Positions 1-63,319 of a stretch of 64,000 nucleotides of DNA are shown here, in pieces; within the stretch, counting starts at the first letter, position 1; every line of letters starts with the position of its first letter. The position numbers were made by a program, and so were the translations under genes. A model generated the notes under the pieces. It was given only the letters and a program-made list of their open reading frames with translations. It searched no databases and was not told where the DNA came from. The DNA comes from an uncultured Ectothiorhodospiraceae bacterium (lineage in GTDB: Bacteria; Pseudomonadota; Gammaproteobacteria; UBA9214): the NCBI GenBank assembly GCA_947259415.1, contig CAMYMI010000013.1, positions 487 to 64,486 of the forward strand, read 5' to 3'.

Positions 1-678
1 AGTACAAAAACAGAACTGATTAACTGGATAGGTCGTAAGTATAAATATACAAAATATCTTGAGGTCGCCACTCTAACGACTGGTCACGAATTTTCATTTG
101 TTAACCAGAAGATCTATTCGACTAATGAACGAATCATGTATCGGCTACCACCAGAATTTGATGATGGAATGCCGATCTCCTGTAGATCGCCTGCTGATGA
201 TAGTAGCGCATGCTTCAAATCGTTAATAGATCAAGGCAAGAAATTTGATGTCGTATTTGTCGACCCATTCCACACTTATGAAGCATCTAGAAGAGACATT
301 GAACTCGCATTGATGGTGCTGAATACAGAGGGTACTCTGGTTGTTCATGACTGCAATCCTCCCGATAAAAAATATATTTCACCAGTTTTTACATCGGGTT
401 CGTGGGTGGGTGAAACGTATCTTGCCTTTATCGATATAGTAAGAGAGAACGATAAAGTAGATTACTGCGTGGTTGATATTGATTGGGGTTGTGGTGTAAT
501 CCGTTTTAATAATGCTGACAGTGCTACTGCATATAACGCCAGGATGGTTGGTAAAACTTGCGAACGTTTGAATAATTACAGGACAAGAAAGAAATATTAT
601 GATTGGGAGTATTTCGATAAACATCGCATCAGTCTTCTCAACCTGAAAAGCGTCAAGGAATTTAAGAGACAATTGTGA
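1..678 (+). CDS. Class I SAM-dependent methyltransferase-like protein, 5'-partial (reading frame open to window start)
   Basis: Frame of ORF 136-678 has no stop back to position 1; upstream in-frame residues include a degenerate motif-I-like 'YLEVATLTTGHE'; downstream 'FDVVFVDPFHTYEASRRD' resembles the O-methyltransferase 'FDxVFIDADK' motif; low-GC (about 40%) segment. Confidence 0.45.
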   Translation, partial: STKTELINWIGRKYKYTKYLEVATLTTGHEFSFVNQKIYSTNERIMYRLPPEFDDGMPISCRSPADDSSACFKSLIDQGKKFDVVFVDPFHTYEASRRDIELALMVLNTEGTLVVHDCNPPDKKYISPVFTSGSWVGETYLAFIDIVRENDKVDYCVVDIDWGCGVIRFNNADSATAYNARMVGKTCERLNNYRTRKKYYDWEYFDKHRISLLNLKSVKEFKRQL

Positions 679-1161
679 CTTAAATCAACAATCGATATCG
701 TTATCAGGAATCAATTGCAGAGTACTGACAAGGGCGGCCTTCAGGTTGCATTTATCGCTTACAGGAATGGCAATTATTGGCCGATCCCGGTACTACAACG
801 TGCTATCAAAAAGCCGATGAGGGCGCCTGCTGAACGGCGCCATTACCCCCGACTCAAGACATTCAGACAGTCATTGCTCCGCACATGACACACCTGACGC
901 CGCCCGGTTCAACATAACACCATGGTGCACATGGAAAAGCGTCGGGTCGGGGCCTATCTGTATCTCATCCACCCCGGCATTTCACTCGCACGATCCGTCG
1001 AGATATCGGTACAACACGATCAGTCCTGACAGACCGTATAGCAGCACACGCGTGCACGCATGTAGAATAGATTTCACCTACACACTCGACACGGCCGTGA
1101 TGTCCGGTCGCCGGGCCAGTTGTAACACAGCCTCGCACAATCGAGGACAGGGGATGACCAT

Positions 1162-2079
1162 TTGAATCTTGAGAACAAGGGGGACAAGGGAATGTGGGCG
1201 ATCAACTGGCAGACAAAAATCACAGCAAGTCTGGTGGCGGTGCTTCTCGTCATCCTGAGTTTCAGCGGCTATGCCGACAAGGTGAGCGAGGAGTACACGG
1301 AGACGGCCCTCAAACGGGCGCTCATAACCTTTGCGAGCGCCCGCGTCATCAACGGCCTCATATCCGTCGCGCAGGGGACGGAGTTGGCGCTTCAGCCGGC
1401 CGGCGTGGGGCCGATTTTCACACCCGGAGAGATACTCGACCCCATCAACGACCTTGTGGAGCAGTTCTCTCAGGTGATGCTCTTCAGCGCCGCCGTCCTG
1501 GGGACGCAGAAAATCCTGATCGAGATGTCCGGGTGGGTCTGGTACTCCTTCCTCACGGCGTCAGTGCTTCTGTTCTGGCTGGCGACCCTCTGGCTACCGC
1601 ACAAATTCAATCCGAGGACACGGCGTGTAGCGTTGGCCCTCTCCGGAATTCTACTTCTCTTCCGCTTCCTCGTACCCCTGGCCGCGATCGCAAACGAGGC
1701 TGTATTCGATCTCTTCCTGGCGCCCGGATATGAAGCCGCGACTCAGAGCCTAGTGGAGACCAAGAGGGGTCTCGACGACGAAGAGAAAGGCAACGAGGTT
1801 ACCGACGAACAGACACCCCCCAAGAAGTCTTTCTCCCGAAGTTTGTCTGACTTTGTCGGCTCACTGAAGGGGAAGGCAGACGTGAGCGACAAGATTGAAG
1901 AACTCAAAACCACCGCGAATCAGACCCCAGAGAGAATCATCGACTTGATCGTCTACTTCTTGATCCAGACTCTAATCCTCCCGATCCTCTTCGCCTGGGT
2001 CGGCTACAGCATCGCTAAAGGCTTGGTGCGCTACGCACTGGAAGTTCCGCCGGAGAGGGCGAATCCACGTGACGGTTGA
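1162..2079 (+). CDS. Hypothetical polytopic membrane protein
   Basis: 305-aa ORF with several hydrophobic helices and a charged Lys/Glu/Asp-rich loop; no recognisable catalytic motif. Confidence 0.5.
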   Translation: MNLENKGDKGMWAINWQTKITASLVAVLLVILSFSGYADKVSEEYTETALKRALITFASARVINGLISVAQGTELALQPAGVGPIFTPGEILDPINDLVEQFSQVMLFSAAVLGTQKILIEMSGWVWYSFLTASVLLFWLATLWLPHKFNPRTRRVALALSGILLLFRFLVPLAAIANEAVFDLFLAPGYEAATQSLVETKRGLDDEEKGNEVTDEQTPPKKSFSRSLSDFVGSLKGKADVSDKIEELKTTANQTPERIIDLIVYFLIQTLILPILFAWVGYSIAKGLVRYALEVPPERANPRDG

Positions 2080-2494
2080 GCGCGTTTGATCAACCAGGGT
2101 AACGTTCGTTCACAAGGTGAATTCACCTTCACCTTGATCACGCAATTTAGCAAGATAAAAGTATTTCACTCTTGTGAACGAGCGATAAACACGTCGTCTT
2201 AGGTCTGTAACTATAACCCCCCACATTTCCCAATCGAACATCCCGAGGTGAGGGACACCCTTGGGGCGACGGGCTTAGGGGGCGGATCGGGAATTTTTCT
2301 GTACGGCGAATTTGTACGCCACCTCCGGCGGTTGCCTTTACCCATTTTTGTGCTAATCTAAAAGTGCAGTCCGGCAGTCCCTTATTGGGATCGATCGCGG
2401 CAAGGCAAGGCATAGTTGAGTTGGCAGGCCAGGCCCGGACTGTATGGACCTGCCCACTCCTTTTGTTTGTTCAACCAAGAAAGGAGTGCATACT

Positions 2495-2752
2495 ATGCAC
2501 ATGCGTGATGATGTACGTGAGCCGGTGATTGAGGCGTTCGACTGCGGGAGTCCCATTCCCAAGGTAGTAGTAGAGAATCTCGGAGGACCAGCAGAGGCGA
2601 AACGAGTCTTTGGTCGCCTCTGGAACTGCAGCAATACTCTTCCCGGTTATATAGTCGATTTCATCCGATCGGATTGGCTTGGTGCCAACGAGGAAATGAG
2701 GCGTAACACCTTCGGCTCTCTCGCCCAATGGATGTTTCGACTCATGCAGTAA
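2495..2752 (+). CDS. Hypothetical small protein
   Basis: ATG at 2495 preceded by AAAGGAG RBS 7 nt upstream; overlaps a 128-aa antisense ORF; low-GC region. Confidence 0.3.
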   Translation: MHMRDDVREPVIEAFDCGSPIPKVVVENLGGPAEAKRVFGRLWNCSNTLPGYIVDFIRSDWLGANEEMRRNTFGSLAQWMFRLMQ

Positions 2753-2942
2753 CGACGAATGACGGCGGCCTTCGGGTCGCCGTTTTTGTTTGTGCTGTAT
2801 GTCCGTTACTGGCCGATCTTGGAAGTACAGAATCCGCATATCAGTTAGATTAGCCATTTATGCGGATGTCTGACTCCAATCAGAACCCGGACGTTCGATT
2901 AAATTTATCAATAATCCTGTTTATATGCCCTAAAACAAGCGT

Positions 2943-3124
2943 AAATGGTCAAGTTTCAATTTCCCCAAACTTTTCCAATGAAGATGCTCAATGCCCCAAA
3001 ATGGGCAAGTTGAATATCATCCAGCTTTCTCAATGAAGACGCTAAATGCTCCAAAATGGGCAAGTCTGATATTCCCTAATCTTTCCCAATCATGACGCTC
3101 AATAATGATTCTTAATGGGAATCA
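2943..3124. repeat. About 55-bp tandem direct repeat, roughly 3.3 copies, in AT-rich convergent intergenic region
   Basis: Units 'caatgaagatgctcaatgccccaaaatgggcaagttgaatat' (2976-3018), 'caatgaagacgctaaatgctccaaaatgggcaagtctgatat' (3031-3072), partial 'caatcatgacgctcaataatgattcttaatgggaatca' (3087-3124) and a partial leading copy 'aaatggtcaagtttcaat'. Confidence 0.7.
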
Positions 3125-3174
3125 CACGCCAACAGATACATCAACATTCATATTATTTTAATTATTTAAATCGA

Positions 3175-4635
3175 TTAATCAGCTGCGGACTGGACAAAGG
3201 ACTCTAGCTCGGCACCGAAGGCCGCCACGTCGTCCAGTATCTTGCTTTTAGTATCATCATCCGCCATCTCTGAGCGTAGTTGCTCGATCTCGGCGTGAAA
3301 ATCCGTGAAACTGAAGTGTCCTGATTCCCCGTCGACCAGACGGGCGTGGCAATGTTCCAGCCACTGCGACTGCTCGTCGGCACTGAGCGTTTCTGGGTAA
3401 TTACGCGCCCGATAACGAAACAGCATCTCCGGAAGGCGCTTGTCCACAAAGCCCCAGCTTTGTTTGCCCAGTTCCTGTGGATCGGTATCGTGAATCGCGT
3501 TCATAAGTTTCTTGTCACTGTCATTGAAGAACCCGCCGGCATAGATCATCAGGTCCGGATCGGTAACCGGCTCTAAATCGCGCGGCTCGAATATTTTGGC
3601 TACCCTTTGCTGTATTGCCTTGCGCGCATGCAGCAGTATCTGGCGATTGCGCTTACCCGTGATGAGATCGATTTGGAGCCGTTTAGCGGCATCGCCGGTG
3701 AGGGTAGCCGTCGGAGCGATAACCGGACACTTATTGATCAGAACCTGCTTGAGTGCTGGGCGCTCGACCCCTTCGGGAAGATCCTCGTTTGCGGTATAAA
3801 GTCGTTCCTGTAGAGTTTTCGCACCAAGATCAAGCAGCAACGCCGGATCCTGCGCGAGGTCGAAGACAATGATGCTGTTCTTGTTGGTCGGGTGGGCAGC
3901 AACGGGCACCACCAGACGGGTACTGCCGTGATCGCTACCGTACATTCCTGACGTGTGCAGGATCGGCGTCATCTCTTTCAGATCGATGTACTTGAGGGCT
4001 TCCTTCTTACGCCGCAGCCGGTAGAGAAAATCATAGAGCTTGGGCTGCTTTTCCTTGATCAGCTTCGCGATCGCAATGGTGGCATAGACGTCGGACAGGG
4101 CGTCGTGCGCCTGTTCATGGGTGATACCATTAGCAACGGTGAGTTCCTCAAGTCTGAAGCTGGGCCGATCGGCATCTGCGCGGCGGGGCCAGGTAATACC
4201 CTCCGGGCGTAGATCATGGCACGCGCGTACCATGTCGATGATATCCCAGCGCGAATTACCATTTTGCCACTCGCGACCGTAGGGATCGTAGAGGTTGCGG
4301 TAGAGGGTATTGCGCGTTACCTCATCATCGAAGCGCAGCGAGTTGTAGCCCACACCACAGGTATCGGGTTGCGATAACTCCGCCAGAATACGGGCGATAA
4401 ACTCGGCCTCAGGCAGACCCTGCTCCAGTGCTTGCTGCGGGGTAATGCCGGTAATCAGCGACGATATTGGGTGCGGTAGGGTATCCGGTGCAGGCCGCGC
4501 CATGATATTCAGCGGCTCACCGATGATGTTGAGGTCCTCATCGGTACGGATGCCGGCGAATTGCACCGGTCGGTCGCGCGCCGGATCCAACCCGAATGTC
4601 TCGTAATCGTGCCAATACAGCGTGTTCTGTATCAT
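3175..4635 (-). CDS. sbcB: Exodeoxyribonuclease I (ExoI)
   Basis: N-terminus 'TLYWHDYETFGLDPARDRPVQFAGIRTD' is the canonical ExoI DnaQ-like exonuclease start; 486 aa is the typical length. Confidence 0.9.
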   Translation of the reverse strand: MIQNTLYWHDYETFGLDPARDRPVQFAGIRTDEDLNIIGEPLNIMARPAPDTLPHPISSLITGITPQQALEQGLPEAEFIARILAELSQPDTCGVGYNSLRFDDEVTRNTLYRNLYDPYGREWQNGNSRWDIIDMVRACHDLRPEGITWPRRADADRPSFRLEELTVANGITHEQAHDALSDVYATIAIAKLIKEKQPKLYDFLYRLRRKKEALKYIDLKEMTPILHTSGMYGSDHGSTRLVVPVAAHPTNKNSIIVFDLAQDPALLLDLGAKTLQERLYTANEDLPEGVERPALKQVLINKCPVIAPTATLTGDAAKRLQIDLITGKRNRQILLHARKAIQQRVAKIFEPRDLEPVTDPDLMIYAGGFFNDSDKKLMNAIHDTDPQELGKQSWGFVDKRLPEMLFRYRARNYPETLSADEQSQWLEHCHARLVDGESGHFSFTDFHAEIEQLRSEMADDDTKSKILDDVAAFGAELESFVQSAAD

Positions 4636-4789
4636 TGACCTTCTCTGAAAACTGCTGGCTAGACCCTACCATAGGGCGCTCGAGGGGGACAGATGAGGCT
4701 ATTGAATAAAAAGACAACTCCGGTTTCCTTGTGAAATTCCCATTTACAAATATTTTCCGAATAAAACCGTGTGCGAACTAGGTGCCTGA

Positions 4790-5362
4790 ATGCTAGCCTT
4801 GCCATTCATGAGTTCCAGTTCCGACTCAGTGCCCCTTACCTTGGCATGCCATCCGGAGACCCCCTCTCAGGCAATACAGGGTATCGAGGTAGTGGTGGGT
4901 ACGGCGCCAGGTGATATCCTCACCCTGGCCTTTGTACTGGAAGGTCATATCTCCGGTTTACGCATCCCTAAACCTGGACCATCTCAACGGGCGAGTGGTT
5001 TGTGGCGGCATACCTGCTTCGAGGCTTTTGTGATGGCGGAGGATGGCCCTGCATATCGAGAGTTCAACTTCTCGCCCTCGGGGGAGTGGGCGATTTATGC
5101 TTTTCGCGGCTATCGGGCCGGTGACGAACTGGGAGTTGAACTGATCCCGGGAATCGCGGTACGCCGGACCGGGGGTCGGCTGGAGCTGGATGCGGAGATC
5201 TGTCAGGATTTCCTGCCACCAGGCCGTCCGCTGCGGCTGGGGCTGTCAGCGGTCGTGGAGGATGCTGATGGCGTGCTGTCGTACTGGGCCTTGCGACATC
5301 CTCCGGGCAAGCCCGACTTCCATCATACGGACGCCTTTGCATTACAACTGGAATTTCCCTGA
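4790..5362 (+). CDS. Hypothetical protein
   Basis: 190-aa ORF immediately upstream of and co-oriented with the DUF1343 gene; no recognised motif. Confidence 0.4.
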   Translation: MLALPFMSSSSDSVPLTLACHPETPSQAIQGIEVVVGTAPGDILTLAFVLEGHISGLRIPKPGPSQRASGLWRHTCFEAFVMAEDGPAYREFNFSPSGEWAIYAFRGYRAGDELGVELIPGIAVRRTGGRLELDAEICQDFLPPGRPLRLGLSAVVEDADGVLSYWALRHPPGKPDFHHTDAFALQLEFP

Positions 5363-5400
5363 ATGCGTGACTTGAACAATCCAGCGGACGGAGTGAGGCC

Positions 5401-6606
5401 ATGAAGTTTGGCATCGACCGCCTGTTACATCAGACCATACTGCGCCAGTCCCTCGCGGGGCGTCGTGTGGCTCTGTTAGCCCATCCGGCCTCTGTGACTG
5501 ACGATCTCATCCACTCCCTAGATGCCCTTGCGCGTCTCCCCGATATTCGCCTTACCGCCGCCTTCGGTCCTCAGCATGGTCTGCGCGGGGACAAGCAGGA
5601 CAACATGGTGGAGTCGCCGGATTTCAACGATCCTGAGCTGGGTATCCCGGTGTTCAGTATGTATGGCGAGGTACGTCGACCCACACCGGCAATGATGGAC
5701 AGCTTTGACGTGCTGCTGGTGGACCTGCAGGATTTGGGTTGCCGCATCTATACCTTCATTACCACCCTGCGCTATGTTCTAGAGGCGGCAGCACAATTTA
5801 ACAAGCGGGTGGTGGTGTTGGATCGACCTAACCCGGTCGGGCGCCCGGTCGAGGGGCTGACTTTGCGTCCGGGCTGGGAGAGTTTCGTGGGCGCGGGTCC
5901 TTTGCCCATGCGTCATGGCCTCACAATGGGCGAACTTGCCCTGAGGTTTGTGCGTACCCTGAAACTGGATGTGGAATGCGAGGTTGTGACCATGGAGGGT
6001 TGGGCACCCGGGGACGGGCCGGGCTATGGCTGGCCTCTGTATGAACGCACCTGGATTAACCCCAGTCCCAACGCGCCCAATCTCTGGATGGCTCGCTGCT
6101 ATCCCGGTACGGTCATGCTGGAGGGCACAACCCTGTCTGAGGGGCGTGGTACCACCCGGCCCCTGGAACTATTCGGGGCACCGGATCTGAAACCCCGAAA
6201 ACTTCTGTGGGACATGCAGCAACTTGCTCCCCAGTGGCTGCAGGGCTGCCGGCTGCGGGAGTGTTGGTTCGAACCCACTTTCAACAAACACGCGGGAAAG
6301 CTGTGCGCCGGAGTGCAGATTCATGTGGAGGACGGGGCCTACGATCATGCTGCATTCAGACCCTGGCGGCTGATGGCCGTGGCTTTCAAGGCCCTGCGCC
6401 GACAGCGGCCGGATTACGAGCTTTGGAGAGACTTCCCCTACGAGTATGAAGTCGACCGTCTTGCCATCGATCTGATCAATGGCGGCGAACTCCTGCGCCA
6501 GTGGGTGGATGACCCGGAGGCCACACCGTCTGACCTGGAAGTCCTTGCCGGGGCAGACGAGGCAGCATGGATAGCCGAGCGAGAATCGGTGATGTTGTAT
6601 GGGTGA
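5401..6606 (+). CDS. DUF1343 family protein (NamZ-like exo-beta-N-acetylmuramidase family)
   Basis: N-terminal 'GIDRLL...LAGRRVALLAHPASV...AAFGPQHGLRGD' matches the DUF1343 signature (GID..L, GKRVGL.TN, FSPEHG.RG). Confidence 0.75.
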   Translation: MKFGIDRLLHQTILRQSLAGRRVALLAHPASVTDDLIHSLDALARLPDIRLTAAFGPQHGLRGDKQDNMVESPDFNDPELGIPVFSMYGEVRRPTPAMMDSFDVLLVDLQDLGCRIYTFITTLRYVLEAAAQFNKRVVVLDRPNPVGRPVEGLTLRPGWESFVGAGPLPMRHGLTMGELALRFVRTLKLDVECEVVTMEGWAPGDGPGYGWPLYERTWINPSPNAPNLWMARCYPGTVMLEGTTLSEGRGTTRPLELFGAPDLKPRKLLWDMQQLAPQWLQGCRLRECWFEPTFNKHAGKLCAGVQIHVEDGAYDHAAFRPWRLMAVAFKALRRQRPDYELWRDFPYEYEVDRLAIDLINGGELLRQWVDDPEATPSDLEVLAGADEAAWIAERESVMLYG

Positions 6607-6895
6607 ATGTGTCAGTGAAGACGGTATAAAAACCCGTCAAAAGATCATCGACGATCAGGGGCGTGTCGATACCCTGATGGAGCAGGTCAAGGCATGGCAG
6701 GGAGCCCAGCAGTTGCGCGACTACGTCAAGGCTGTCCGTGGTGGTGGTTACTATGCACAAGCTGCCATTACCGGTGGTAGAGACTTGGAGGCCTGGTGCG
6801 ACTGGGCTTTGGACCAGGCCAGTCGCCTGGATCCAACGGTCTCCAGTCCACCATCGGTGCTGGACTACAAGGACCAGTTCTTTTGGCGCCGATGA
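6599..6895 (+). CDS. Hypothetical protein (start overlaps DUF1343 stop, ATGGGTGA)
   Basis: 98-aa ORF translationally coupled to the upstream gene; no motif. Confidence 0.35.
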   Translation: MGECVSEDGIKTRQKIIDDQGRVDTLMEQVKAWQGAQQLRDYVKAVRGGGYYAQAAITGGRDLEAWCDWALDQASRLDPTVSSPPSVLDYKDQFFWRR

Positions 6896-7811: not shown

Positions 7812-8891
7812 ATGTTTACATTTGCAGCCAACGTCGAGGAACTGATAAATAACTTCCGCATCGAGGGTGCCACGTTCCGCTACAGCAGCTTCGTGCCCCG
7901 GCTCTACAACTACGTCAAGTCACTGGGATTCGAAACGGGCAAGATGCTTCCGTCACGCGCCTTCTGCGCCGACGAGAACCAGGGCTACCCGATCATCCTC
8001 CTCACCAAGCATTTCGGTAGCTACCCGTTCAACCACGGGCGCGGCGGAGCCGTTGTCGCGACGGATCGCCATGAGCCTTTCGCTGAGCACGGAGAAGGCC
8101 TGGTGATCATTCACGCCAGCCATGTCGGCTATGAACCCGACAGCGAGCAGTTCGGCGCCTACAACCGGGTACACACCCGGGACAGCCGCCACACCGCATG
8201 CTGCGGAAAGATCAACGCCATCGTATCCTGGTACCTGGAACAGTATCGAATCGCGCAGGCCGACATCCTGCTGGAATGCTCAGACGGCGCGTTATGCCTG
8301 CGGATTGACAACGGCCTGCTGCGCCACAGCACCGCCAAGAGCTTTCTTGCCAGCGATGCCCTGCAAAAGGAGCTTGCGCACCTCGAGAGTAAAATCAAGG
8401 ATGGTCAACGTATTCCCATTGGTGAACACCTCAAGCCGGACATGTTTTTCTTCCGTCGCGAGCTTGATGAAACCGTTGAGGGTCGCAATCACCAGGAACT
8501 GGAACTGATATACCCCATGCCCTGGATCGTGACATCACCCTGGCCGCTATTGACCGCCGCCCAGATCAATACCCAGGTCGAGTTCGACCGCACCTTGCGC
8601 ACAGTTGCCCATGCAAACATCTTTCGTGACAAGTGCCTTTTTTACATATCCGGACTGAATATCGACATATCCCCGCAGCCCGGCGAACTCTTCCCAACAA
8701 CCAAGTTCGTCCCCTGGGCCGCCTTCCTCAGGGATAGAAAGGGGGGGCAACGCATCATAGAACAGGCCGAGCTGGTCAGCCTGTTGCGTCAACAGAGCAA
8801 GGAAAACCCCGACCAGATCGATATGGACCAGGCCATCCGCGAGATGGCGGAGGCCGACACGGTCGAGATTGTCACACCGGCCAGCGCATAG
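7812..8891 (+). CDS. Hypothetical conserved protein; possible LCIB/beta-carbonic-anhydrase-like fold (tentative)
   Basis: 359 aa; contains 'FCADENQG' and 'HTACCGKINA' reminiscent of the beta-CA Cys...HxxCG zinc motifs; otherwise no match I can assert. Confidence 0.5.
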   Translation: MFTFAANVEELINNFRIEGATFRYSSFVPRLYNYVKSLGFETGKMLPSRAFCADENQGYPIILLTKHFGSYPFNHGRGGAVVATDRHEPFAEHGEGLVIIHASHVGYEPDSEQFGAYNRVHTRDSRHTACCGKINAIVSWYLEQYRIAQADILLECSDGALCLRIDNGLLRHSTAKSFLASDALQKELAHLESKIKDGQRIPIGEHLKPDMFFFRRELDETVEGRNHQELELIYPMPWIVTSPWPLLTAAQINTQVEFDRTLRTVAHANIFRDKCLFYISGLNIDISPQPGELFPTTKFVPWAAFLRDRKGGQRIIEQAELVSLLRQQSKENPDQIDMDQAIREMAEADTVEIVTPASA

Positions 8892-8892
8892 T

Positions 8893-9450
8893 ACCCGGCA
8901 TACCGGCCTGAAAGGTGAGGGGCTTGGCCAGATCACGAACACCGTTTCCATCCGTGAGCGACCGGCCTAGGTCGATGATCGGACGGTGCCCGGTCATTGG
9001 GAAGGTGACCTGATCTTCGGCACCCACAACAGTCAAATCGCCACGCTCGTGGAGCGGAATACGCGCTACGTAATGCTGGCCAAGGTTAATGGTAAGGATA
9101 CCGAAAACGTGATCAACGCCCTGATAAAGCATGCTCACAAGTTACCGAGAGAACTCTACAAGTCACTCACCTGGGACCGTAGCAGCGAGATGACCGACCA
9201 CCAGCGCTTCACCCTGGCAACTGACATCAAGGTGTACTTCTGTGATCCGTAGAGCCCCTGGCAGCTGGGTTCGAATGAAAACATCAATGGATTGTTACGG
9301 CAGTACTTTCCCAAGGGCACAGATTTGTCGGTAGACTCACAGACAAAGCTGAATGCAGTGGCTCGTCAGCTAAATGAGTGACCGAGAAAGACGCCAGGTT
9401 TTCAAACCCCGGCAGAATGTTTTAATGCGTGTCTTGCGTCGATCGGTTGA
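8893..9450 (+). mobile_element. IS30-family transposase gene remnant (DDE domain C-terminal part; frameshifts and two in-frame stops)
   Basis: 'VSIRERPA' / 'DRPRSMIGR' / 'GHWEGDLIFG...NTRY...KSLTWDRSSEM...[32 protein letters not shown]...LNE*PRKT..TPAECF' matches the IS30 Tpase C-terminus in three shifted frames with TAG and TGA interruptions. Confidence 0.8.
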
Positions 9451-11080: not shown

Positions 11081-11668
11081 GTACATCTCCTCCGTTTTTC
11101 TGGGACGCCCCATGCCCCATTGCATGTCGATCGGCATTCTCCCCCATCAATGCATTGATGAGGTCCAGGGCATGGGGACAAGATAGTGAAGTTGCGCTCG
11201 GCCTCGGCCTGCTTTGCGACGGCGCGAACCAAGCTCTCGTCCAGGTCCACATGCTCGATCTAAATAGTTAAGACCTTGTAACCCCACGAACAGTATAGAA
11301 GATATTGACGCCTGAGTCTGCCACGAGGGTTATTATTCAGGAAGGTCGGAGATCCGGCCTAAATCTGCTGTTAAACGTCCATCCTCTGGATGTCTTGTTT
11401 GCAGCAGGAGCCAGAAATTTCCATCACGCAATCACCACTTCCGAGAACGGCAAAGAGTTGTCATTGCTCTGAAAAGACCTGCGCATGCGAGGTTTCTTTG
11501 CGGTGTCATAAAGACACAGACTACCCGATTCAGATCCAACGCGAGGCCGATGCCTGCTCTTCAAGCAGGGACGATTGGGATTTTACAGACATGCGTATCC
11601 GAATGATCAGATGTCTAATGGAATCTTTGGTGTGTTGGGTATGAATACGCAGTGTGTCAAGCGACTGC

Positions 11669-13306
11669 CTACCTGATGACAAGCTGGCCATAGTCCAACC
11701 AGAGGTAATGTCCGGGTTGCATGAAATCAGTGTTGCCATCATCGGAGACAATCAATAATCGTTCCGATTCCTTCCCGCGGAAGACAGCAATTCCCTCAGC
11801 TTGCCCGAAGCTCCGGAGATCTGGAGCCAGTACCTCATACAGTTCGCCACCGGCCTGCTCCCGCCATAGCCATAAGCGGAATGGACCGTTCGGTTGTTGC
11901 GCGATCAGGAGGGAGCCACCCAGATGATGAACGTAGTCCATCCCACGGATGCCGCCACCGCCCAGATCAAGTAAATGGGGCTCGTCCGAGAAGACCGGCG
12001 CTGCTTGCTGATCAAACATGGCATTGGGGTTTTCAATGGTCACAATCACTGCTTTCCCGTCGATCAAAGGTGTCCTCAAGCCAATGTGGAGTCTGGACTT
12101 GCCCTGATCGAAGGATAGCCCTTCAATGTTGAATCCCCGGATGTCCCTGGCATCAGGGAATCGTTCGGCAGGTTCGAGAAAGCCGTATGCCTTCACCATC
12201 ATCGCCAGCAAGCCATCGAGAGAAGCGGCCTCGACAACCCGGCTACCATCGAATTTAATACGCAGCAGGCGCTCCCGTTCGGGGCTGCGTGTCCCGTCGC
12301 GCTTACGGGAATGGGACGTAAGCGCGTAGACGTAACCACGCCCGTCAGCAGCGAGGGCCTCCAGATCATCTGCATAATCTAAACCCTGGGCGATGAGCTC
12401 GGATTCCGGAATCCGCATCTCGCTGAGTGTCCCATCTGATCCTGGCGAAACGATGGAGAACGTCAGTCCCTCGTCTTCGGCAATTAGCAATCGTCCATCC
12501 GGAAGCTGCTGAACAGAGGATGGTTCGTATATCGCATTGAATGCGCGAGACTGCAACGTACCGGCAGTGGATGCCAGCTTTGCGGGATCGTCAATCGGCA
12601 AGAGGCTCAATGTTGGCTGGGTGGTATTCGCTTTAGACAGGATTAAAAATACGATAACGGTCGTGACCAATCCAAACAGGAAGATACTGTACGAAATTTT
12701 CAATCTCCTGAACTTGCGATCTACGGTAATGCCCAACCCATAGAGCGTGCGCGACATCTGACTGTAGATTTGTGATTGGTCGTTGTAAATCTTCTCCAGT
12801 GTGTGGGAGTATTCTTCTTTGCTCACCTTGGAAAAATTCTTGAAATAGAGCAGGTCGGCATCCCCGGACAGCATTTCCTCACGGGTTTGTCTGATGTCTT
12901 TCGCCCTTGGCTGAGCCGCCAGGATGGCGAATATCATGGCCCCGACAGAGGAGAGCAGAAAGATACCCATAGGGATCAGCAGCCACGGGCGCCAGCTCGC
13001 AACGAAACTACCGGCAAGTATCATCACTGTGAATGTCATGCTGGTGATGCTCAGCATGATGTTGGCTTTGCCGTCGGCCAGTGTTGTGAGGTCGAGTTGC
13101 AGGCGGTAGGCATTCCGAAATAATGTTTCGACCCCCCGCCCAAATTTTATGCCCGGGGTTTCGGAGTGCTTTTTTTCAGATTTATTCTTCCGTTTCTCTG
13201 GTCGTGGTTCTTGATTGTGCTTGCGTCCGCGCTTGCCCTCAACCTGGTTCTCCCTGGGAGATTCCTTCGACTCTGACAAAGGGGTGATTGTTGTTCTATT
13301 TTCCAT
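11669..13306 (-). CDS. Membrane protein: Lys-rich N-terminal tail, Pycsar-effector-like (DUF5706-like) 2TM domain, C-terminal beta-propeller/phytase-like extracytoplasmic domain
   Basis: 'FRNAYRLQLDLTTLADGKANIMLSITSMTFTVMIL' (aDxKA motif plus TM helices) then Gly/Asp-rich repeats 'DGRLLIAEDEGL...DGRGYVYALTSH...LLIVSDDG'. Confidence 0.55.
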   Translation of the reverse strand: MENRTTITPLSESKESPRENQVEGKRGRKHNQEPRPEKRKNKSEKKHSETPGIKFGRGVETLFRNAYRLQLDLTTLADGKANIMLSITSMTFTVMILAGSFVASWRPWLLIPMGIFLLSSVGAMIFAILAAQPRAKDIRQTREEMLSGDADLLYFKNFSKVSKEEYSHTLEKIYNDQSQIYSQMSRTLYGLGITVDRKFRRLKISYSIFLFGLVTTVIVFLILSKANTTQPTLSLLPIDDPAKLASTAGTLQSRAFNAIYEPSSVQQLPDGRLLIAEDEGLTFSIVSPGSDGTLSEMRIPESELIAQGLDYADDLEALAADGRGYVYALTSHSRKRDGTRSPERERLLRIKFDGSRVVEAASLDGLLAMMVKAYGFLEPAERFPDARDIRGFNIEGLSFDQGKSRLHIGLRTPLIDGKAVIVTIENPNAMFDQQAAPVFSDEPHLLDLGGGGIRGMDYVHHLGGSLLIAQQPNGPFRLWLWREQAGGELYEVLAPDLRSFGQAEGIAVFRGKESERLLIVSDDGNTDFMQPGHYLWLDYGQLVIR

Positions 13307-13554
13307 CTTTCACCGTTTCAGCTCAGCCTCGCGAGGATCTCCGCTCCATCGTTCTTCGGTGCGCCGTTTGATCCTCGGTATTCGAACGAGATTTGCGATA
13401 AAAATGAGTATGCAAAGGATAATCGCACTTTCCGTCAGTAATCAATAGCTCATTGACACGTGCTGATGAGCTAAAAGACCCATTACCAGCCCGATTCGTC
13501 TTGATTATCAAACTCGCAGGCAGGTCAGGTTTCAGCCAAATCGTAGCCTGTCCC

Positions 13555-13622
13555 AAAAAACCGGGGTCAGATCCCAGTTTCCACTAATATTAGAAGAAAC
13601 TGAGATCTGACCCCGGTTTTTT
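13555..13622. other. Long near-perfect hairpin (21-bp stem, 1 mismatch) flanked by A6 and T6
   Basis: 'aaaaaa ccggggtcagatcccagtttc ...loop... gaaactgagatctgaccccgg tttttt'. Confidence 0.6.
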
Positions 13623-13689
13623 GTTAAGGGACAATATAGTTGATTTTCCTGTCGCACTTATTAACTAAGGAATAGTATTTATTTGGAAA

Positions 13690-13872
13690 TTGCACAAGAG
13701 GAGTGATCCAGTTTTTCAACTATTATCTTGCCAGCCTGGGACTGCTTTGCCAGGTGTAGAAGCCCGCTCCGGTGCAGTCACACTGATCCAGCGATTAGGA
13801 TCAGCGCTAAATCTGAATATCCATTTCCACATGTTGTTCCTGGACGGCGTCTATATTGGAAACAATTCTTAA
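13690..13872 (+). pseudogene. IS91-family (HUH Y2) transposase fragment
   Basis: 'GAVTLIQRLGSALNLNIHFHMLFLDGVY' matches the conserved N-terminal block of IS91/ISCR transposases; only 60 codons remain. Confidence 0.5.
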
Positions 13873-13956: not shown

Positions 13957-15132
13957 ATGAATGACATAATTAATAAAATAAACGATTTACTTGGACCGGC
14001 AGGCTCGAGCGCGCTTGGCCATGCATTAGTCGGCCTGGCGATTCTTGTCATTGGTCTTTTTGTCGTCAAGTTCATCGTCGGCATCTTCAGGCGCATGCTC
14101 AAAAAGGTCTCGATGCTGCATCGCACGAATGCTGACGGTTCAGTCACGGACCTGGCGACGCCGATTGCCTCGCTGATCAAGGCAGTATTGACCATCTTCG
14201 TACTGATGGCTGTCCTGCAACACTTCGGTCTGACTGACGTGCTGGAACCACTGAAGAATATGGTAAGCGAGTTCATGACAGCGGTACCCAACATTATCGG
14301 TGCCGGCGTCATCGGCTACGCGGGTTGGGTCATTGCGAAAATTGTTTCGCAGCTGGCAAGTGCGGGGCTGGGCAAGGTTGACGAGCAGCTCGCCGAACGT
14401 ACCGGAAACAGGGATATCAAGATTTCCAGGTTTGGCAGTGCACTTATTTTCGCCATCATCCTGCTTCCCATCATTGTGTCAGCACTCGGCGTTCTTAACA
14501 TTCCGGCGATCTCCGACCCGGCTTCCGCCATGATCCAGAAACTGATGGCCGCCGTGCCGAACATCATCGGCGCCGGTATCATCCTGATCGTGGTCTACTT
14601 TGCCGCGAAGTTCGTTGTCTACATCCTTGGTGGGCTTCTTGAGGGCGCGAACATCAATGCATTGCCTGAGAAAATGGCCATGCAAGGCCTGTTTACAACA
14701 ACATTTACTCCGACCCGCCTTGTCGGTGGTGCGATCATGTTTTTCTCGATGGTGGCTGCGGCGACTGCTGCGGTGAATATTCTTGGTATCGATATCATCA
14801 CCAAAGTGTTCGCCAGGGTCCTGGAATTCGGTGGCGGCCTGCTGGTTGGCGGCCTGATTCTGATTATCGGTAACTTCCTGAGCACCATCGCCTACGACAA
14901 ACTATCCGGCCACGGCAACACCGGTATAGCCAACATCGCACGCATTGCCATACTCGGCCTGGTGCTGGCGATGGGTCTGAAGGCAATGGGACTTGCCGAT
15001 AATATTGTGACCATGGCCTTTGGTTTCACGATCGGCAGTGTAGCGGTTGCCGCTGCCCTGGCCTTCGGTCTCGGTGGCAGGGATGCCGCCAAGGTGGTTG
15101 CCGACAAATGGGCGTCAAAAATCAACTCCTAG
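13957..15132 (+). CDS. Conserved-TM-helix repeat membrane protein (MscS-N-terminal-like TM_helix repeats only)
   Basis: Repeated 'AVPNIIGAGVIGYAGWVIAKIV' / 'AVPNIIGAGIILIVVYFAAKFV' units. Confidence 0.6.
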   Translation: MNDIINKINDLLGPAGSSALGHALVGLAILVIGLFVVKFIVGIFRRMLKKVSMLHRTNADGSVTDLATPIASLIKAVLTIFVLMAVLQHFGLTDVLEPLKNMVSEFMTAVPNIIGAGVIGYAGWVIAKIVSQLASAGLGKVDEQLAERTGNRDIKISRFGSALIFAIILLPIIVSALGVLNIPAISDPASAMIQKLMAAVPNIIGAGIILIVVYFAAKFVVYILGGLLEGANINALPEKMAMQGLFTTTFTPTRLVGGAIMFFSMVAAATAAVNILGIDIITKVFARVLEFGGGLLVGGLILIIGNFLSTIAYDKLSGHGNTGIANIARIAILGLVLAMGLKAMGLADNIVTMAFGFTIGSVAVAAALAFGLGGRDAAKVVADKWASKINS

Positions 15133-15327: not shown

Positions 15328-15823
15328 TTGCGGCGGTGGCGGGGGGTGCGCAGCGACCGCCGCGATACCCGTGGCCTCCGCGGAGTTTTCGGCCCTGAAA
15401 CGTACCAATCGCCGTATCGCGATGGCACCACACATGTGATCTTCGAGCACCTCGATTTCATCGATGTGCATTACCTCCATTTCAAGGACTTCAATCAGCA
15501 TTTTGACGACGAGGCCAAGGCACGGCTTGCGGGTATGAAGGGCCGCATGTCCACCCGCATGGGGGCGGCCATGCGCCACGCGGGACAGTACCTGCTGAAG
15601 CAACCGGAGCGGCGCAAATTATTGCTGCTGGTCACCGACGGGGAGCCGGCGGATATCGACGAGCGTGATCCACAGCACCTGCGCCACGATACCAAGAAGG
15701 CGGTGGAGGAACTCTATACCAAATAAGGTGCCGACCTACTGTCTGACGCTGGATCCGAACGCCGATCAATACGTGAAGCGGATCTTTGGAGAGAAACACT
15801 ATACGATGATAGATCATGTGTAG
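15328..15823 (+). pseudogene. NorD/CbbO-like VWA protein C-terminal fragment, frameshifted (preceded by an orphan Tat-signal fragment 15185-15439)
   Basis: 'LLLLVTDGEPADIDERD...DTKKAVEELYTK*' then +1 frame 'VPTYCLTLDPNADQYVKRIFGEKHYTMIDHV*' equals the NorD/CbbO C-terminal VWA signature split by a frameshift at about 15726; upstream ORF carries 'SRRDFLKLFGAALG' twin-arginine motif without a mature domain. Confidence 0.6.
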
Positions 15824-34904: not shown

Positions 34905-35105
34905 TTAAACTCCCTCTCCTTTATGCCCGTTTTTTGGGTGCACCGGGAGAGGGTTGGGGAGAGGGGATCAAATAGTGATAACTTTCTTGTTTCACACCCC
35001 CTCATCCTAGTCGCTTCCGGCATCCCGCCTCCCGCGACACTGTGCATCCATGCACATCGTCATTCTCCCTGTACATCCAACAAACGGGCATAAAGGAGAG
35101 GGGGG
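34905..35105. repeat. REP/BIME-like element with 21-bp terminal inverted repeats (MITE-like)
   Basis: TIRs 'tccctctcctttatgcccgtt' (34910-34930) and 'aacgggcataaaggagagggg' (35082-35102) flank a core containing 'gggagagggttggggagagggg'. Confidence 0.6.
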
Positions 35106-36871: not shown

Positions 36872-39223
36872 CTATTTCGACGTCATCACGAAGACGCCGT
36901 TCCAGTCGTCGCCGGGCGGGTGGTTCTTCATGTAGTCGCAGCGCTCGATGTAGGTACGCGACAGTTTATCGTTCGGGTGCAGCTTGAGGGCGTCGTTGAA
37001 GGCGGCCGTGGCCTTGTCCCAGTTGCCGTTACGGTACTGCGTCAGGCCGTCCTTGAAATGAAGGACCGTTTCCATCAGGTTGGGAAAGCTCTCCTCGCTG
37101 TGGTGGTCGAGGATCTCGTAGATGGACACCGGTTCGGTCTTGCCCTTGACAATCACCCGGTCGATTTCGCGGATGCGGTAGGTGCCGTGCAGCTTGCGGT
37201 AGGTGTTCTCGCTGGTCAGGATGCGCGCCGAGTACTGTTTGCAGGCACTCTCCAGGCGTGCCGCGAGGTTCACGCCGTCACCGATAATGGTGTAGTCCAT
37301 GCGCTTGGGCGAGCCGATGTTGCCCGAGACCACCACGTCGGTGTTGAGCCCGATGCCCATGTCCACCGGGTGTTTGCCCAGAGCCAGCCGTTCCCGGTTC
37401 CAGTCATCGAGTTTCCTGATCATAGCGATGGCGGCACGCACGGCGCGGTCCTCGTCGTCATCGTGGGCGATCGGCATACCGAAGGCCGCCATGATGGCAT
37501 CGCCGATGAACTTGTCGAGCATGCCTTCCTCGCGCTGGATGCAGTCGACCATGAGGGTGAAATACTCGTTCAGCAGGGCGACGGTGCCCTGGGCGCCGAG
37601 TTCCTCGGTCAGCGTGGTGAAGCCGCGGATATCGGAGAACAGAATGGTCGCCGGGGTGCTCTTGCCGCCGAGGATATCGCCACCACCCTCCAGGACCTGG
37701 TCGGCCAGGCCGGGATCCATGTAGCGCGCCATGGTCGACTTGACCCGCTTTTCGGTGCTGATGTCCTCGATCATGATCAGGGTGCCGAGCGAGTGCTCGT
37801 CGGAGGCGATCAGCGGCAGCACGGTCAGGTTGACCGAGACCTTGTTGTTGTTGAATTCGAGTTCGGCGTCCACCGAGATGTCCGGTACGCGGGTCTCGGC
37901 CACGCGCAGGATCTTGTCCCGGACCCAGGCATTGGCGCCGGTGAGGAACTCGTCGGCAGAGCGGCCGATGATGTCCTGGCTGTCGAGCTGCATAATGCGC
38001 GAGCCGGCGTCATTGCAGGTCACGATGTTGGCATCCTCGTCCAGGGTGAACACCCCGTTCGACATGCTCTGCAGCATGCTCTCGTTGTAGTTCTTCATGT
38101 TCTCGACGTCGTTGAACAGCTTGGCGTTCTCGAGGCCGATGGAGACCTGTGCCGTGAACGCGCGCAGGCGGGATTCGTCCTCCCCGGTAAAGGCGCCGCC
38201 GCGCTTGTTGAGCACCTGGGTGACGCCGATGGTCTTGCCGTCCTTGTTGACCACAGGAACGCACAGGATGGAGCGTGTGAAAAAGCCGGTCTTGCGGTCG
38301 AATTCCGGGTTGAAGCGCAGGTCGGCATAGGCATAGGGGATGTTCACCGACTGGCCACTGGTGAACACGGTGCCGGCAATACCCTGGTCATTGGGCAGGC
38401 GGATCTGGGTGGCGTCCAGGCCCACGCCGGTCTGCGACCATAACTCGCCGGACTTCTCGTCGTTGATGAACAGGGTCGAGCGTTCGGCATTGAGCATGCG
38501 CGTGGCCTCGGTCATCACCTTCTGCAGCACCACGGCGAGGTCGATCTCGGAGGTGACGTCCGAGACGATGTCGAGGAACTCCAGTTCCTGGGTGTGGGAC
38601 CTGTGCATGCGCTCGGCGAACTGGACGCTGTGCAGGGTGATCGAGGCCTGCAGGGTCAGCGCCTGCAATACCTCCAGGTTTTCCTCGGTGAACTCGCCGT
38701 GCTGCTTGTTCAGTGATTGTGCCACGCCGATGATGTCACCCTTGACGGTCCGGATCGGTGTGCACAGCACGTTGCGGGTATGGTAGCCGGTTTTTTCATC
38801 CACGGACGGGCTGAAGCGTTCATCGGAGTAGGCGTCATGGATGACCATGCTCTCGCCATTGGTGAACACATGGCCGGCGATCCCCACGGTGTTCAGTATC
38901 CGGATATCACGTCGGATGTCGCCCAGAGCCACCCGAGAGTACAGCTCGCCGGTCTCGACATCATTCAGGAACAAGGTGGAGCGATCGGCCCCGGTCTCCC
39001 GGCTGATGATCGTCACCAGGGTCTCGAGCGCCTCATCCAGCGTGTCCATGGCGCCCATTTGATGATTGACATCGACCAGCAGCTCGGCCATGCGCAGACG
39101 CTTGCCGATGACGTCATGCGCGCGGTCCGGGCCACGCCGTTCGACAAAGTCGATGACCGAACTATCCGGCATGGTGCGGCTCCAACGCTGCGCCCGGGGT
39201 GTCGTCGGAAGGTTGTCCCGCAC
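36872..39223 (-). CDS. GAF-GAF-PAS class III adenylate/guanylate cyclase
   Basis: Two GAF domains, a PAS, and cyclase motifs 'FSDIRGFTTL', 'FIGDAIMAAFG', 'GDGVNLAARLE'; alternative start 'MPDSS' at 39172. Confidence 0.85.
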   Translation of the reverse strand: MRDNLPTTPRAQRWSRTMPDSSVIDFVERRGPDRAHDVIGKRLRMAELLVDVNHQMGAMDTLDEALETLVTIISRETGADRSTLFLNDVETGELYSRVALGDIRRDIRILNTVGIAGHVFTNGESMVIHDAYSDERFSPSVDEKTGYHTRNVLCTPIRTVKGDIIGVAQSLNKQHGEFTEENLEVLQALTLQASITLHSVQFAERMHRSHTQELEFLDIVSDVTSEIDLAVVLQKVMTEATRMLNAERSTLFINDEKSGELWSQTGVGLDATQIRLPNDQGIAGTVFTSGQSVNIPYAYADLRFNPEFDRKTGFFTRSILCVPVVNKDGKTIGVTQVLNKRGGAFTGEDESRLRAFTAQVSIGLENAKLFNDVENMKNYNESMLQSMSNGVFTLDEDANIVTCNDAGSRIMQLDSQDIIGRSADEFLTGANAWVRDKILRVAETRVPDISVDAELEFNNNKVSVNLTVLPLIASDEHSLGTLIMIEDISTEKRVKSTMARYMDPGLADQVLEGGGDILGGKSTPATILFSDIRGFTTLTEELGAQGTVALLNEYFTLMVDCIQREEGMLDKFIGDAIMAAFGMPIAHDDDEDRAVRAAIAMIRKLDDWNRERLALGKHPVDMGIGLNTDVVVSGNIGSPKRMDYTIIGDGVNLAARLESACKQYSARILTSENTYRKLHGTYRIREIDRVIVKGKTEPVSIYEILDHHSEESFPNLMETVLHFKDGLTQYRNGNWDKATAAFNDALKLHPNDKLSRTYIERCDYMKNHPPGDDWNGVFVMTSK

Positions 39224-39551
39224 GGTCAGTGCGCTGATGCAGGCCTTCCAGCTCCTGGCGCAGTGCGGTGATGGTGGCCTTCAGCTGCTTGATCTCATCA
39301 CTGGTAGCAACCGTCGCCTGGTTGACCTGTTCCCTGGCATCGAAGCGCTGCTTTTCCAGCTCCTCGCGCAGGGCGCTGATGGTGTCCCGGAACTGCTGAT
39401 TCTCGATATGGTTCTCGGCGACCACCTGCTGTACGGCGTGGTCCTTTTCCAGGCGCATGGCCTCCAGCTCCGTACGCAGGGTCGCGATCATCTCCTGCAG
39501 ATGGCGGATTTCCCGGTTGGCGGCACTAAGTTGTTCGGGTGTGACTTCCAT
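39162..39551 (-). CDS. Coiled-coil hypothetical protein
   Basis: 129 aa with heptad-like repeats ('LRTELEAMRLEKDHAVQQ', 'ALREELEKQRFDAREQ'); overlaps the annotated cyclase start. Confidence 0.4.
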   Translation of the reverse strand: MEVTPEQLSAANREIRHLQEMIATLRTELEAMRLEKDHAVQQVVAENHIENQQFRDTISALREELEKQRFDAREQVNQATVATSDEIKQLKATITALRQELEGLHQRTDRAGQPSDDTPGAALEPHHAG

Positions 39552-39599
39552 GAGCGGCTCGCTGGTAACTGGTTATTATTATAGATTAATTCACTGCAG

Positions 39600-39840
39600 T
39601 CACATAAACTCCCTCTCCCCACGGGAGAGGGCTGGGGAGAGGGGGTCAGAAAATGATAACTGCATGAATCCAAATCCCATCATCCCAGTTTTCTCGGCAA
39701 CTGCTCCATGCCTTGCTCTACCGCCTGCATGGCCCAGGCCAGCTCTTGACCGCTACGCGGCCTCACCTCCTCCCTGCAGGCGTCCCGGAGGTAGAAAGTG
39801 TTTCGTGTTTTACAACGCCCTCCACAGGGAGAGGATTTCT
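39600..39840. repeat. REP/BIME-like repeat cluster (B-type palindrome plus 'cggcaactgctccatgc' element)
   Basis: 'ctccctctccccacgggagagggctggggagagggggtc' plus 'cggcaactgctccatgccttgctctaccgcctgcatgg...ctgcaggcgtcccggagg' also present at 56215-56400. Confidence 0.7.
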
Positions 39841-54884: not shown

Positions 54885-55390
54885 AGCACTTTTCCTAACC
54901 CTCTCCCTAACCCTCTCCCAAAGGGAGAGGGGAAGAAACCAATTCGCTTCCTGTTTTCGCCCATCTTTACTAGAGATTTCCTTCTTCCTGCGGGACTCTT
55001 TTCAGTACCCCCTTGAGGGGCAGAAGGTTAGGATGAGGGGATATGAAATAAATGCTTTCCCATTTATCCTCTTTTATGCCCGGCGCTTAATAGGATACTT
55101 TCCAGCCCTTTTCCTAACCCTCTCCCTAACCCTCTCCCAGAGGGAGAGGGGGGTAAAGAAATTCGCTCCCGCAGTATCCAGAGAGTGGCATAAAGGAGAT
55201 GATATGTACTTGTACAAGAGAGACGCACACCGAAAGTGAATTGGTTTATCCCCCTCCACCCTAGGAATTAGTGATTGTTTTGTTGTTAACCCCCTCTCCC
55301 TTCGGGAGAGGGTTGGGGAGAGGGGTTAATGCGCTCGCTCACAGAATTCAAAATAAACAGGTTTGAAGGGGAGAGGGTTAACGCCTGATC
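54885..55390. repeat. REP/BIME-like repeat cluster (two about 63-bp direct repeats 218 bp apart, a MITE-like TIR element, a B-type palindrome)
   Basis: 'cttttcctaaccctctccctaaccctctccca(a/g)agggagagggg' at about 54889 and about 55107; TIRs 'cctcttttatgcccgg' / 'gtggcataaaggag'; 'aaccccctctcccttcgggagagggttggggagaggggttaa'. Confidence 0.7.
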
Positions 55391-62765: not shown

Positions 62766-62789
62766 ATGCTCGCTGCTATCTCGTTTACC

Positions 62790-62930: not shown

Positions 62931-62943
62931 GAGTTCCAAGTTG

Positions 62944-63318: not shown

Positions 63319-63319
63319 T

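Follow-up and report, generated by a model that had tools for sequence, protein, structure and literature searches.

The closest described relatives of the protein studied here are the membrane effectors PycTM and PucTM, 'pJV1-SpdB3 family 3TM' (three-transmembrane) proteins that work through abortive infection; in cryo-electron microscopy, EcPucTM is a hexamer in which the second transmembrane helix (TM2) lines a channel of about 15 Å (preprint 10.64898/2026.08.12.744502). We analyzed a stretch of 64,000 nucleotides from an uncultured Ectothiorhodospiraceae bacterium (contig CAMYMI010000013.1, positions 487 to 64,486), hereafter named the window, in which a single gene on the minus strand, at 11669..13306, joins a PycTM-like 3TM module to a beta-propeller of the DUF3616 family. 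To our knowledge, PycTM-type effectors have so far been seen solely as suicide pores of phage defence that depend on a cyclase. The product of the gene is an inner-membrane protein whose two modules appear to have evolved together for long, and we estimate at roughly 0.5 the probability that it couples a 3TM scaffold or channel to a periplasmic propeller with a role in the cell envelope. No description of a 3TM-DUF3616 partnership was found in the literature searched.

The gene is a complete open reading frame (ORF) from ATG to stop, encoding 545 amino acids (aa), and lies exactly where an earlier analysis based on the letters alone (the sequence-only reading) had placed it. The peptides KRGRKHNQEPRPEKRKNKSEKKH and LADGKANIMLSITSMTFTVMIL begin at aa 25 and aa 76 of its product, respectively. 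The Pycsar-effector-like membrane domain proposed by that reading was recovered by two model sets: PycTM PF18967 matched aa 107-212 in Pfam (E 2.6e-23, 82.9 bits, cut-off 27.2), and the PycTM models of PADLOC, which derive from real Pycsar effectors, matched aa 71-222 with a best E of 3.4e-15, spanning model positions 17-154 of 160. The CBASS-type '2TM effector' models of PADLOC matched more weakly than the PycTM models, and NCBIfam gave no match. The C-terminal domain had been called DUF3616/phytase-like. The first name stands (DUF3616 PF12275, E 3.8e-12, 46.7 bits, cut-off 20.6), and for the second, Phytase-like PF13449, the window protein gave no match in Pfam at E up to 10. Judged from these profile matches, the window protein is a member of PF18967 and PF12275, both above the curated thresholds. 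The Gly/Asp richness ascribed to the roughly 300-aa C-terminal domain is real and modest (G 11% and D 7.9% over ~290 aa), and this domain gave a confident beta-propeller model.

Structure prediction, which the sequence-only reading had proposed as a check, gave confident models of both domains. AlphaFold2 (AF2), run on an 83-sequence alignment, reached a mean predicted local distance difference test score (pLDDT) of 85.9 for the full protein. The predicted layout runs from a disordered segment (aa 1-48, pLDDT below 50) through a helix at 57-105, comprising an amphipathic part and TM1, a helix at 107-131, small cytosolic helices at 142-175 and a helix at 177-229 that includes TM3, to a low-confidence linker at 231-248. 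The 3TM module was modelled at pLDDT 85-97 and aa 255-545 at 90-98, the latter as 20 beta-strands arranged in five four-stranded blades. The features of the gene, all on the minus strand, are the following:

11669..13306, minus strand: whole ORF, 3TM PycTM-like module joined to a DUF3616 propeller (ORF call, Pfam, ratio of nonsynonymous to synonymous substitution rates, dN/dS)
13136..13306, minus strand: predicted disordered polybasic cytoplasmic N-tail, aa 1-57, 16 K+R and 9 D+E (AF2 pLDDT, charge)
12617..13135, minus strand: PycTM/pJV1-SpdB3-type 3TM module, aa 58-230 (hidden Markov model (HMM) matches, AF2, dN/dS 0.09)
13004..13060, minus strand: TM1, aa 83-101, within helix 57-105 (hydropathy 1.76; AF2)
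12914..12988, minus strand: TM2, aa 107-131 (hydropathy 2.28; AF2 helix 107-131)
12698..12913, minus strand: predicted cytosolic helical insert between TM2 and TM3, aa 132-203, 14 K+R (Pfam, conservation, hydropathy, AF2)
12629..12697, minus strand: TM3, aa 204-226, putative export signal-anchor for the propeller (hydropathy 2.41; unfused homologues bear a signal peptide instead)
12545..12616, minus strand: predicted flexible periplasmic linker, aa 231-254, ending 'TLQSRAF' (pLDDT below 50 at 231-248; junction comparison)
11672..12544, minus strand: DUF3616 five-bladed beta-propeller, aa 255-545, 20 strands (Pfam, conservation, AF2, Foldseek)

The three hydrophobic helices, detected by hydropathy and as AF2 helices, replace the '2TM' label of the sequence-only reading with a module of the 3TM pJV1-SpdB3/PycTM type, in agreement with the 3TM description of EcPucTM. 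The module is ordered as an N-terminal amphipathic helix carrying invariant R64 and L76-A77-x-x-K80-A81, then TM1, TM2, the cytosolic helical insert and TM3. The insert forms the core of the Pfam PycTM match and holds invariant M184, G192, R197, K198 and F199. By analogy only, TM2 may be the counterpart of the pore-lining helix in the EcPucTM hexamer. A fold search of the isolated 3TM model against a PDB copy from which the EcPucTM structure was absent gave no significant match, the best being generic BAR-like helical bundles (E 0.027).

Charges are distributed unevenly along the protein, with 19 K+R in the N-terminal 82 aa, 14 K+R in loop 131-207, and an acidic C-terminal 317 aa (30 K+R vs 46 D+E). 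Three hydrophobic helices and these charges obey the positive-inside rule, and the topology is therefore predicted to be N-in/C-out, with the propeller in the periplasm. This placement is also supported by the homologues. A signal-peptide-like hydrophobic core was found at the N-terminus of 78 of 108 unfused DUF3616 homologues, 15-20 residues ahead of a conserved YEPS motif, and close 3TM relatives carry cytoplasmic enzymes at the N-terminal side: P0285 has a class III cyclase domain there, and P0314 and P0336 have HD/PDEase-like domains. The extracytoplasmic position earlier assigned to the C-terminal domain thus agrees with topology, signal peptides and domain order alike.

The highly basic N-terminus, earlier called unusual, turned out to be a compositional trait of the entire DUF3616-coupled subfamily. 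Across 33 fused proteins, the tail that precedes the conserved motif is 57 aa long at the median, and its last 30 residues carry a net charge of +5, again a median (+7 in the window protein); the tails of unfused partner-type 3TM proteins agree with those of the fused proteins in length and charge. Unpaired ~205-aa 3TM relatives have shorter tails of 28 aa, at +2. The tail sequence itself appears free to vary, with a dN/dS of about 1 that comes from only 9 substitutions. A role in membrane-lipid binding or as a channel plug is speculative.

The sequence-only reading had also presented the fusion as a novel architecture, which is not the case. A profile search of 1.84 billion representative proteins recovered ~35 clusters at 50% identity that span both halves, with lengths of 491-715 aa; the profile was full-length (525 positions) and therefore counts fusions, not every PycTM architecture. 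The fusion is present in NCBI-annotated genomes, for example those of Thiocystis violacea and Neisseria wadsworthii. A split operon form exists as well: in a Desulforhopalus metagenome-assembled genome (MAG) and a Thiotrichales genome, a stand-alone DUF3616 gene lies 6-21 bp downstream of a separate PF18967 gene. We scanned one genome per species and retrieved 491 loci encoding propeller relatives, the best 80 of which were tested for a partner with an HMM of the N-terminal module of the window protein. A 3TM partner was detected in 18 of these 80: as a separate gene directly upstream on the same strand in 14 loci, only as a fusion in two (Methylomarinum and a Pseudomonadota MAG), and as a fused gene followed by an extra DUF3616 paralogue in the two Neisseria loci. 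All nine loci closest to the propeller of the window were paired. The remaining 62, mostly from Betaproteobacteria, showed neither a 3TM partner nor any other conserved neighbour. In Neisseria sp. 83E34 (L083) and N. wadsworthii (L086), the fused gene occupies ~3912-5756 and the stand-alone paralogue follows directly at ~5935-6864; the two propellers of each locus were placed in different parts of the tree.

The unfused 3TM partners mirror the N-terminal half of the window protein, with a polybasic tail, a GxETMFRxAYR...LAATKANIM motif and three TM helices, and their periplasmic tail of ~24 aa ends in '...SLQSR(A/V)xP..Q*'. At the junction, the sequence of the window protein is '...AGTLQSRAFNAIYEPS': the motif of the partner tails directly abuts the mature N-terminus of a secreted propeller, and the signal peptide is missing. 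The linker end 'TLQSRAF' marks this junction because of its likeness to the 'SLQSR(A/V)' motif of the partners. In addition, 7 of the 18 partner loci have a gene for an outer-membrane porin of the Porin_O_P family at a distance of 14-222 bp on the downstream side of the DUF3616 gene (L015, L016, L018, L019, L020, L022 and L060; at 6935-8299 in L022, for example), which suggests a three-gene envelope module of 3TM protein, DUF3616 propeller and porin in about 40% of split-type cases.

Neighbour-joining (NJ) trees of the propeller (118 sequences) and the 3TM module (104 sequences) recovered matching subgroups. The fused forms branch deeply and are diverse, with the operon-type pairs nested among them as one clade and the unpaired propellers as another. 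A separate 3TM clade groups ~205-aa stand-alone, HD-fused, cyclase-fused and cyclase-adjacent proteins. Long-term co-divergence of the two modules looks consistent in both trees and is not firmly established, and the trees only hint at a fused ancestor that later underwent fission and loss, because they are midpoint-rooted NJ trees that carry no support values. The closest stand-alone ~205-aa PycTM relatives (L005-L010, e.g. L005 6001-6615) are 40% identical to the 3TM module of the window. They sit in a conserved non-defence setting, between PLD and MAPEG or TonB-barrel genes and an HMG-CoA reductase gene, with cyclase and DUF3616 both absent, under the NCBI name 'Pycsar system effector family protein'.

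Sequence comparison indicates that the target gene is under purifying selection. Against its 94%-identical homologue P0001 on contig L094 (dS 0.185), dN/dS was 0.17 overall, 0.09 in the 3TM module and 0.20 in the propeller, and 12 full-length homologues at 33-38% identity have invariant residues in both halves. These values, together with the conserved full-length homologues, exclude a pseudogene or chimeric artefact. At the DNA level the window and L094 share a single block, and its flanks are unrelated:

11448..13466, no strand assigned: block shared with contig L094 at 92.7% nucleotide identity, comprising the gene with ~160 bp upstream and ~220 bp downstream (DNA comparison)

On L094, two genes at 453-2282 (minus strand) and 2470-3288 (plus strand) precede P0001, one of them phytochelatin-synthase-like and one for a REC-GAF-MBL protein; neither has a DNA-level match in the window. 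The REC-GAF-MBL protein matches the Anti-Pycsar Apyc1 family PF23023 and is a putative cyclic-nucleotide phosphodiesterase.

In the propeller, every blade has invariant residues where its first strand begins or next to that point (E261, D314/E316, N393/E395, R454 and E504), and H332, R344, R349, R411 and D522 are also invariant. These residues are common to fused and unfused forms alike. In propeller enzymes, the start of the first strand normally marks the mouth of the central tunnel. Given the invariant polar residues at these positions, the propeller would most likely bind a metal together with a small anionic molecule in a central pocket, with a function as hydrolase or binder. The best Foldseek match in the PDB was the C-terminal domain of Escherichia coli YjiK (3qqz, E 3e-7, template modelling score 0.66 on the target), followed by the Drp35 lactonase, ava_4197 and papaya glutaminyl cyclase, i.e., generic five- and six-bladed enzymes; a viral fold library returned generic propellers only. 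At the sequence level, phmmer with the window protein against solved structures gave only spurious TM or non-significant matches, and the profile of the propeller family found nothing significant, with 3qqz at E 0.98. Among 46 family members examined with Pfam, 44 matched DUF3616, 41 Phytase-like (PF13449, E up to 0.1, best 1.8e-9) and 8 touched SdiA-regulated (PF06977, E up to 0.1).

Taken together, we favour the reading of a 3TM scaffold or channel coupled to a periplasmic propeller. By homology with EcPucTM, the 3TM module would oligomerise as a hexamer with TM2 facing inward, which would set a ring of propellers on the periplasmic face. TM3 is predicted to export the flexible linker and the five-bladed propeller into the periplasm, where the propeller, probably metal-dependent, would act on or bind an anionic ligand. 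The 3TM module may localise the propeller or couple it to the cytoplasm, and on its cytosolic side it may be responsive to a nucleotide ligand synthesised in trans. A connection with nucleotide signalling is plausible. The propeller is probably active on its own, since the same residues persist in a large betaproteobacterial clade that has no 3TM partner. An envelope role also fits a biofilm screen that yielded a transposon mutant in a DUF3616 gene (PMC3130047).

Several points weigh against this reading. The metal/anion pocket rests on the place of the conserved residues in the strand pattern rather than on measured coordinates, and neither phmmer nor the family profile connected DUF3616 by sequence to a solved structure. 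We know of no established biochemical function for DUF3616. The ideas of oligomerisation and nucleotide binding are carried over from a distant homologue for which a preprint is the sole source, and the trees behind the co-divergence have the limits given above. The window has no porin gene, tblastn with three porins revealed no porin remnant next to the target, and no second copy of the 3TM module or the propeller was found elsewhere in the window. The association with porins O/P had suggested a phosphate chemistry for the propeller; control by the Pho regulon found no support, as a scan for E. coli-type Pho boxes in the upstream regions of 17 genes gave chance-level scores for the window and uneven ones beyond it, with only 3-4 loci scoring above shuffles. 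Finally, the gene occupies differing, repeat-bounded contexts in two ~93%-identical relatives, a mobility typical of accessory and defence genes; one fused homologue adjoins BrxR and a type I restriction-modification methylase (HsdM), and another, P0008, adjoins a putative cyclase gene.

A rival reading is that of a single-gene or trans-activated antiphage effector of abortive infection, in which opening of the pore would collapse the membrane potential. The trigger would be the cyclic nucleotide of an unlinked cyclase, or the propeller sensing phage attack on the envelope. Such a defence role is possible but not favoured, and we consider it rather unlikely. The homology of the 3TM module to bona fide Pycsar TM effectors is significant and extends over nearly the full PADLOC model length, and PycTM/PucTM effectors do act by abortive infection. 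The cassette is small, differs in context between close relatives and is flanked by insertion sequence (IS) remnants and a palindrome, and the Apyc1-like MBL protein encoded on L094 lies near the gene. The case weakens when the cyclases are considered. No cyclase gene was found within about 12 kb on either side of the target, and the effector homology without an adjacent cyclase confirms the earlier view that this is not a canonical Pycsar operon: the target gene is not part of a Pycsar operon. Fused homologues first examined had unrelated neighbours and no cyclase, and an adjacent cyclase was seen in only 1 of ~26 related contexts. A jackhmmer cyclase search of 97 loci (1.05 Mb) found only the positive control, in which a 3TM relative (35% identical) on a Fulvitalea plasmid lies directly upstream of an adenylate/guanylate cyclase gene, and two distant genes of the window. 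These two are class III cyclase genes, 24-31 kb from the target:

36875-39280, minus strand: multi-domain sensory GAF-GAF-PAS-Guanylate_cyc(-TPR) protein (domain matches)
42208-44178, minus strand: multi-domain sensory CHASE2-Guanylate_cyc protein (domain matches)

Their presence in the genome counts in favour of the antiphage effector. Both match the PycC models of PADLOC strongly (5e-26 and 4e-24), which shows that these models are not specific to Pycsar; as they detect ordinary sensory cyclases at 1e-24 to 1e-26, the absence of PycC near the target and its relatives is meaningful. The exception among the fused and paired family is P0008, where a Guanylate_cyc-TPR gene lies 147 bp downstream in two sister assemblies. 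Its product is a 624-aa protein encoded on the same strand (L097 5581-7455, L098 5120-6994). The nearest relative of P0008, P0012 (L100), has no adjacent cyclase; the gene downstream of P0012, checked as a cyclase candidate, proved not to encode one. The wider gene environment does not point to phage defence either. Among 95 neighbours in 17 paired or fused loci, no defence enrichment was detected, and PADLOC gave generic matches only, with no PycC. The recurrent Pfam families were Porin_O_P (6, directly downstream), histidine kinase and response regulator domains, and methyl-accepting chemotaxis proteins. No full-length relatives were found on 72,556 plasmids or in 50,697 phage records. The co-divergence of the modules over deep distances resembles that of a stable cellular module, and the large clade that retains the propeller without the pore module is hard to square with a mere phage sensor. 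We think that a role in envelope physiology is likelier than abortive infection.

A PycTM-type oligomeric pore could also be gated from the periplasmic side by the tethered propeller, as an 'outside-in' effector, which we regard as distinctly improbable. An envelope or extracellular cue would then replace or supplement the cytosolic cyclic nucleotide, and this cue would be either an attacking phage or a small anionic ligand admitted by the associated porin. If true, this gating would represent a new class of cyclase-independent trans-envelope switch, derived from or ancestral to an immune effector.

The 3TM module might instead be a passive anchor, the protein being a periplasmic DUF3616 enzyme that uses three helices in place of a signal peptide. 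Unfused homologues do function with a plain signal peptide, the unpaired betaproteobacterial clade dispenses with the 3TM partner, and a flexible linker separates TM3 from the propeller. We nevertheless find this explanation decidedly doubtful, because no part of the protein is under stronger constraint than the 3TM module (dN/dS 0.09), some of whose cytosolic residues are invariant, and the 3TM and propeller NJ trees are congruent. Moreover, in 14 loci the propeller has its own signal peptide and yet directly follows a retained, separate 3TM gene; an anchor would be pointless there. A decaying chimera or annotation artefact, born of rearrangement in a region with transposase fragments on both sides and synteny breaks near the gene, is refuted by the intact frame, the overall dN/dS of 0.17, full-length homologues conserved from 33 to 94% identity, the same architecture in about 35 divergent clusters, and the confident AF2 models of both domains.

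The stable partnership with a periplasmic propeller, almost always without a cyclase, points to a second life of the 3TM module beyond Pycsar. It opens a route toward what DUF3616 and the 3TM module, both poorly understood families, do in the cell, and for interaction and structural work the fused and split forms constitute a natural Rosetta-stone pair. It also calls for caution in annotation: a PF18967 match alone should not earn the label 'Pycsar system effector'.

The surroundings of the gene in the window are largely of a housekeeping nature. Within about 12 kb we found genes for exonuclease I, NamZ, two c-type cytochromes, an MscS-like TM protein, phosphoglucomutase, methyltransferases, an SBF transporter and a sulfur-transport protein. 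The mobile-element remnants noted by the sequence-only reading are present on both sides of the gene (first two lines), together with other elements:

8986-9252, plus strand: rve integrase core fragment (E 3e-11)
13690-13872, plus strand: fragment of the N-terminus of an IS91-type Y2_Tnp (E 2.8e-5)
15328-15726, plus strand: fragment with a partial VWA domain
13556..13625, no strand assigned: near-perfect palindrome with a ~30-bp stem, between an A-run and a T-run (sequence, shuffles, folding free energy dG)

The palindrome borders the block common to the window and L094, and 250 bp separate it from the start codon downstream. Its dG is -60 kcal/mol and it comprises two arms; 0 of 100 shuffles reached 2 matches. 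A matching palindromic element occurs at the synteny break of L094 (3417-3481). The palindrome may act as a bidirectional terminator or represent a MITE-like (miniature inverted-repeat transposable element) sequence; a scan of promoter and terminator consensus sequences gave nothing above shuffle expectation. Short dispersed repeats of 40-170 bp, 72-92% identical, were found at 34912-35103, 39592-39730, 55118-55325, 56201-56767 and 62773-63541, with further matches at L094 84-271; they resemble a family of small REP-like (repetitive extragenic palindromic) or MITE-like elements of the genome. Divergent from the target, at 13957-15132 (plus strand), a gene encodes a 391-aa multi-pass membrane protein with repeated MS_channel_1st_1 (PF05552) helices, which is not conserved beside homologues elsewhere. 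A 359-aa ORF at 7812-8891 (plus strand) gave a sub-threshold match to LCIB/C-type beta-carbonic anhydrase (E 7e-4, 19.3 bits vs a cut-off of 25).

Compared with known systems, the propeller shares its fold with the Drp35 lactonase and plant glutaminyl cyclase, which have conserved polar residues at or beside the innermost strands; this likeness is generic (template modelling scores 0.46-0.59, 7-11% identity), with no shared catalytic motif demonstrated. Its best structural match, E. coli YjiK (PF06977), is likewise a membrane-anchored periplasmic propeller, but the anchor differs and the sequence likeness is non-significant. Secreted DUF3616/Phytase-like proteins such as XAC2848/Bdp7 of Xanthomonas citri belong to the same propeller family, share the invariant residues and are extracytoplasmic. 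These proteins are free in the periplasm or secreted with a signal peptide, whereas the propeller of the window appears tethered to, and co-evolving with, a 3TM module. This module is homologous to the Pycsar/Pucsar TM effectors, with likewise three TM helices and a cytosolic helical region, and by analogy probably shares their oligomeric membrane assembly. The cyclase-adjacent, cyclase-fused and HD-fused 3TM forms belong to an NJ clade separate from the assemblage that holds the window module. In contrast to the Pycsar/Pucsar TM effectors, the window gene lies outside defence islands and has no partner cyclase, and its product adds a polybasic N-tail and, at the C-terminus, a predicted periplasmic propeller.

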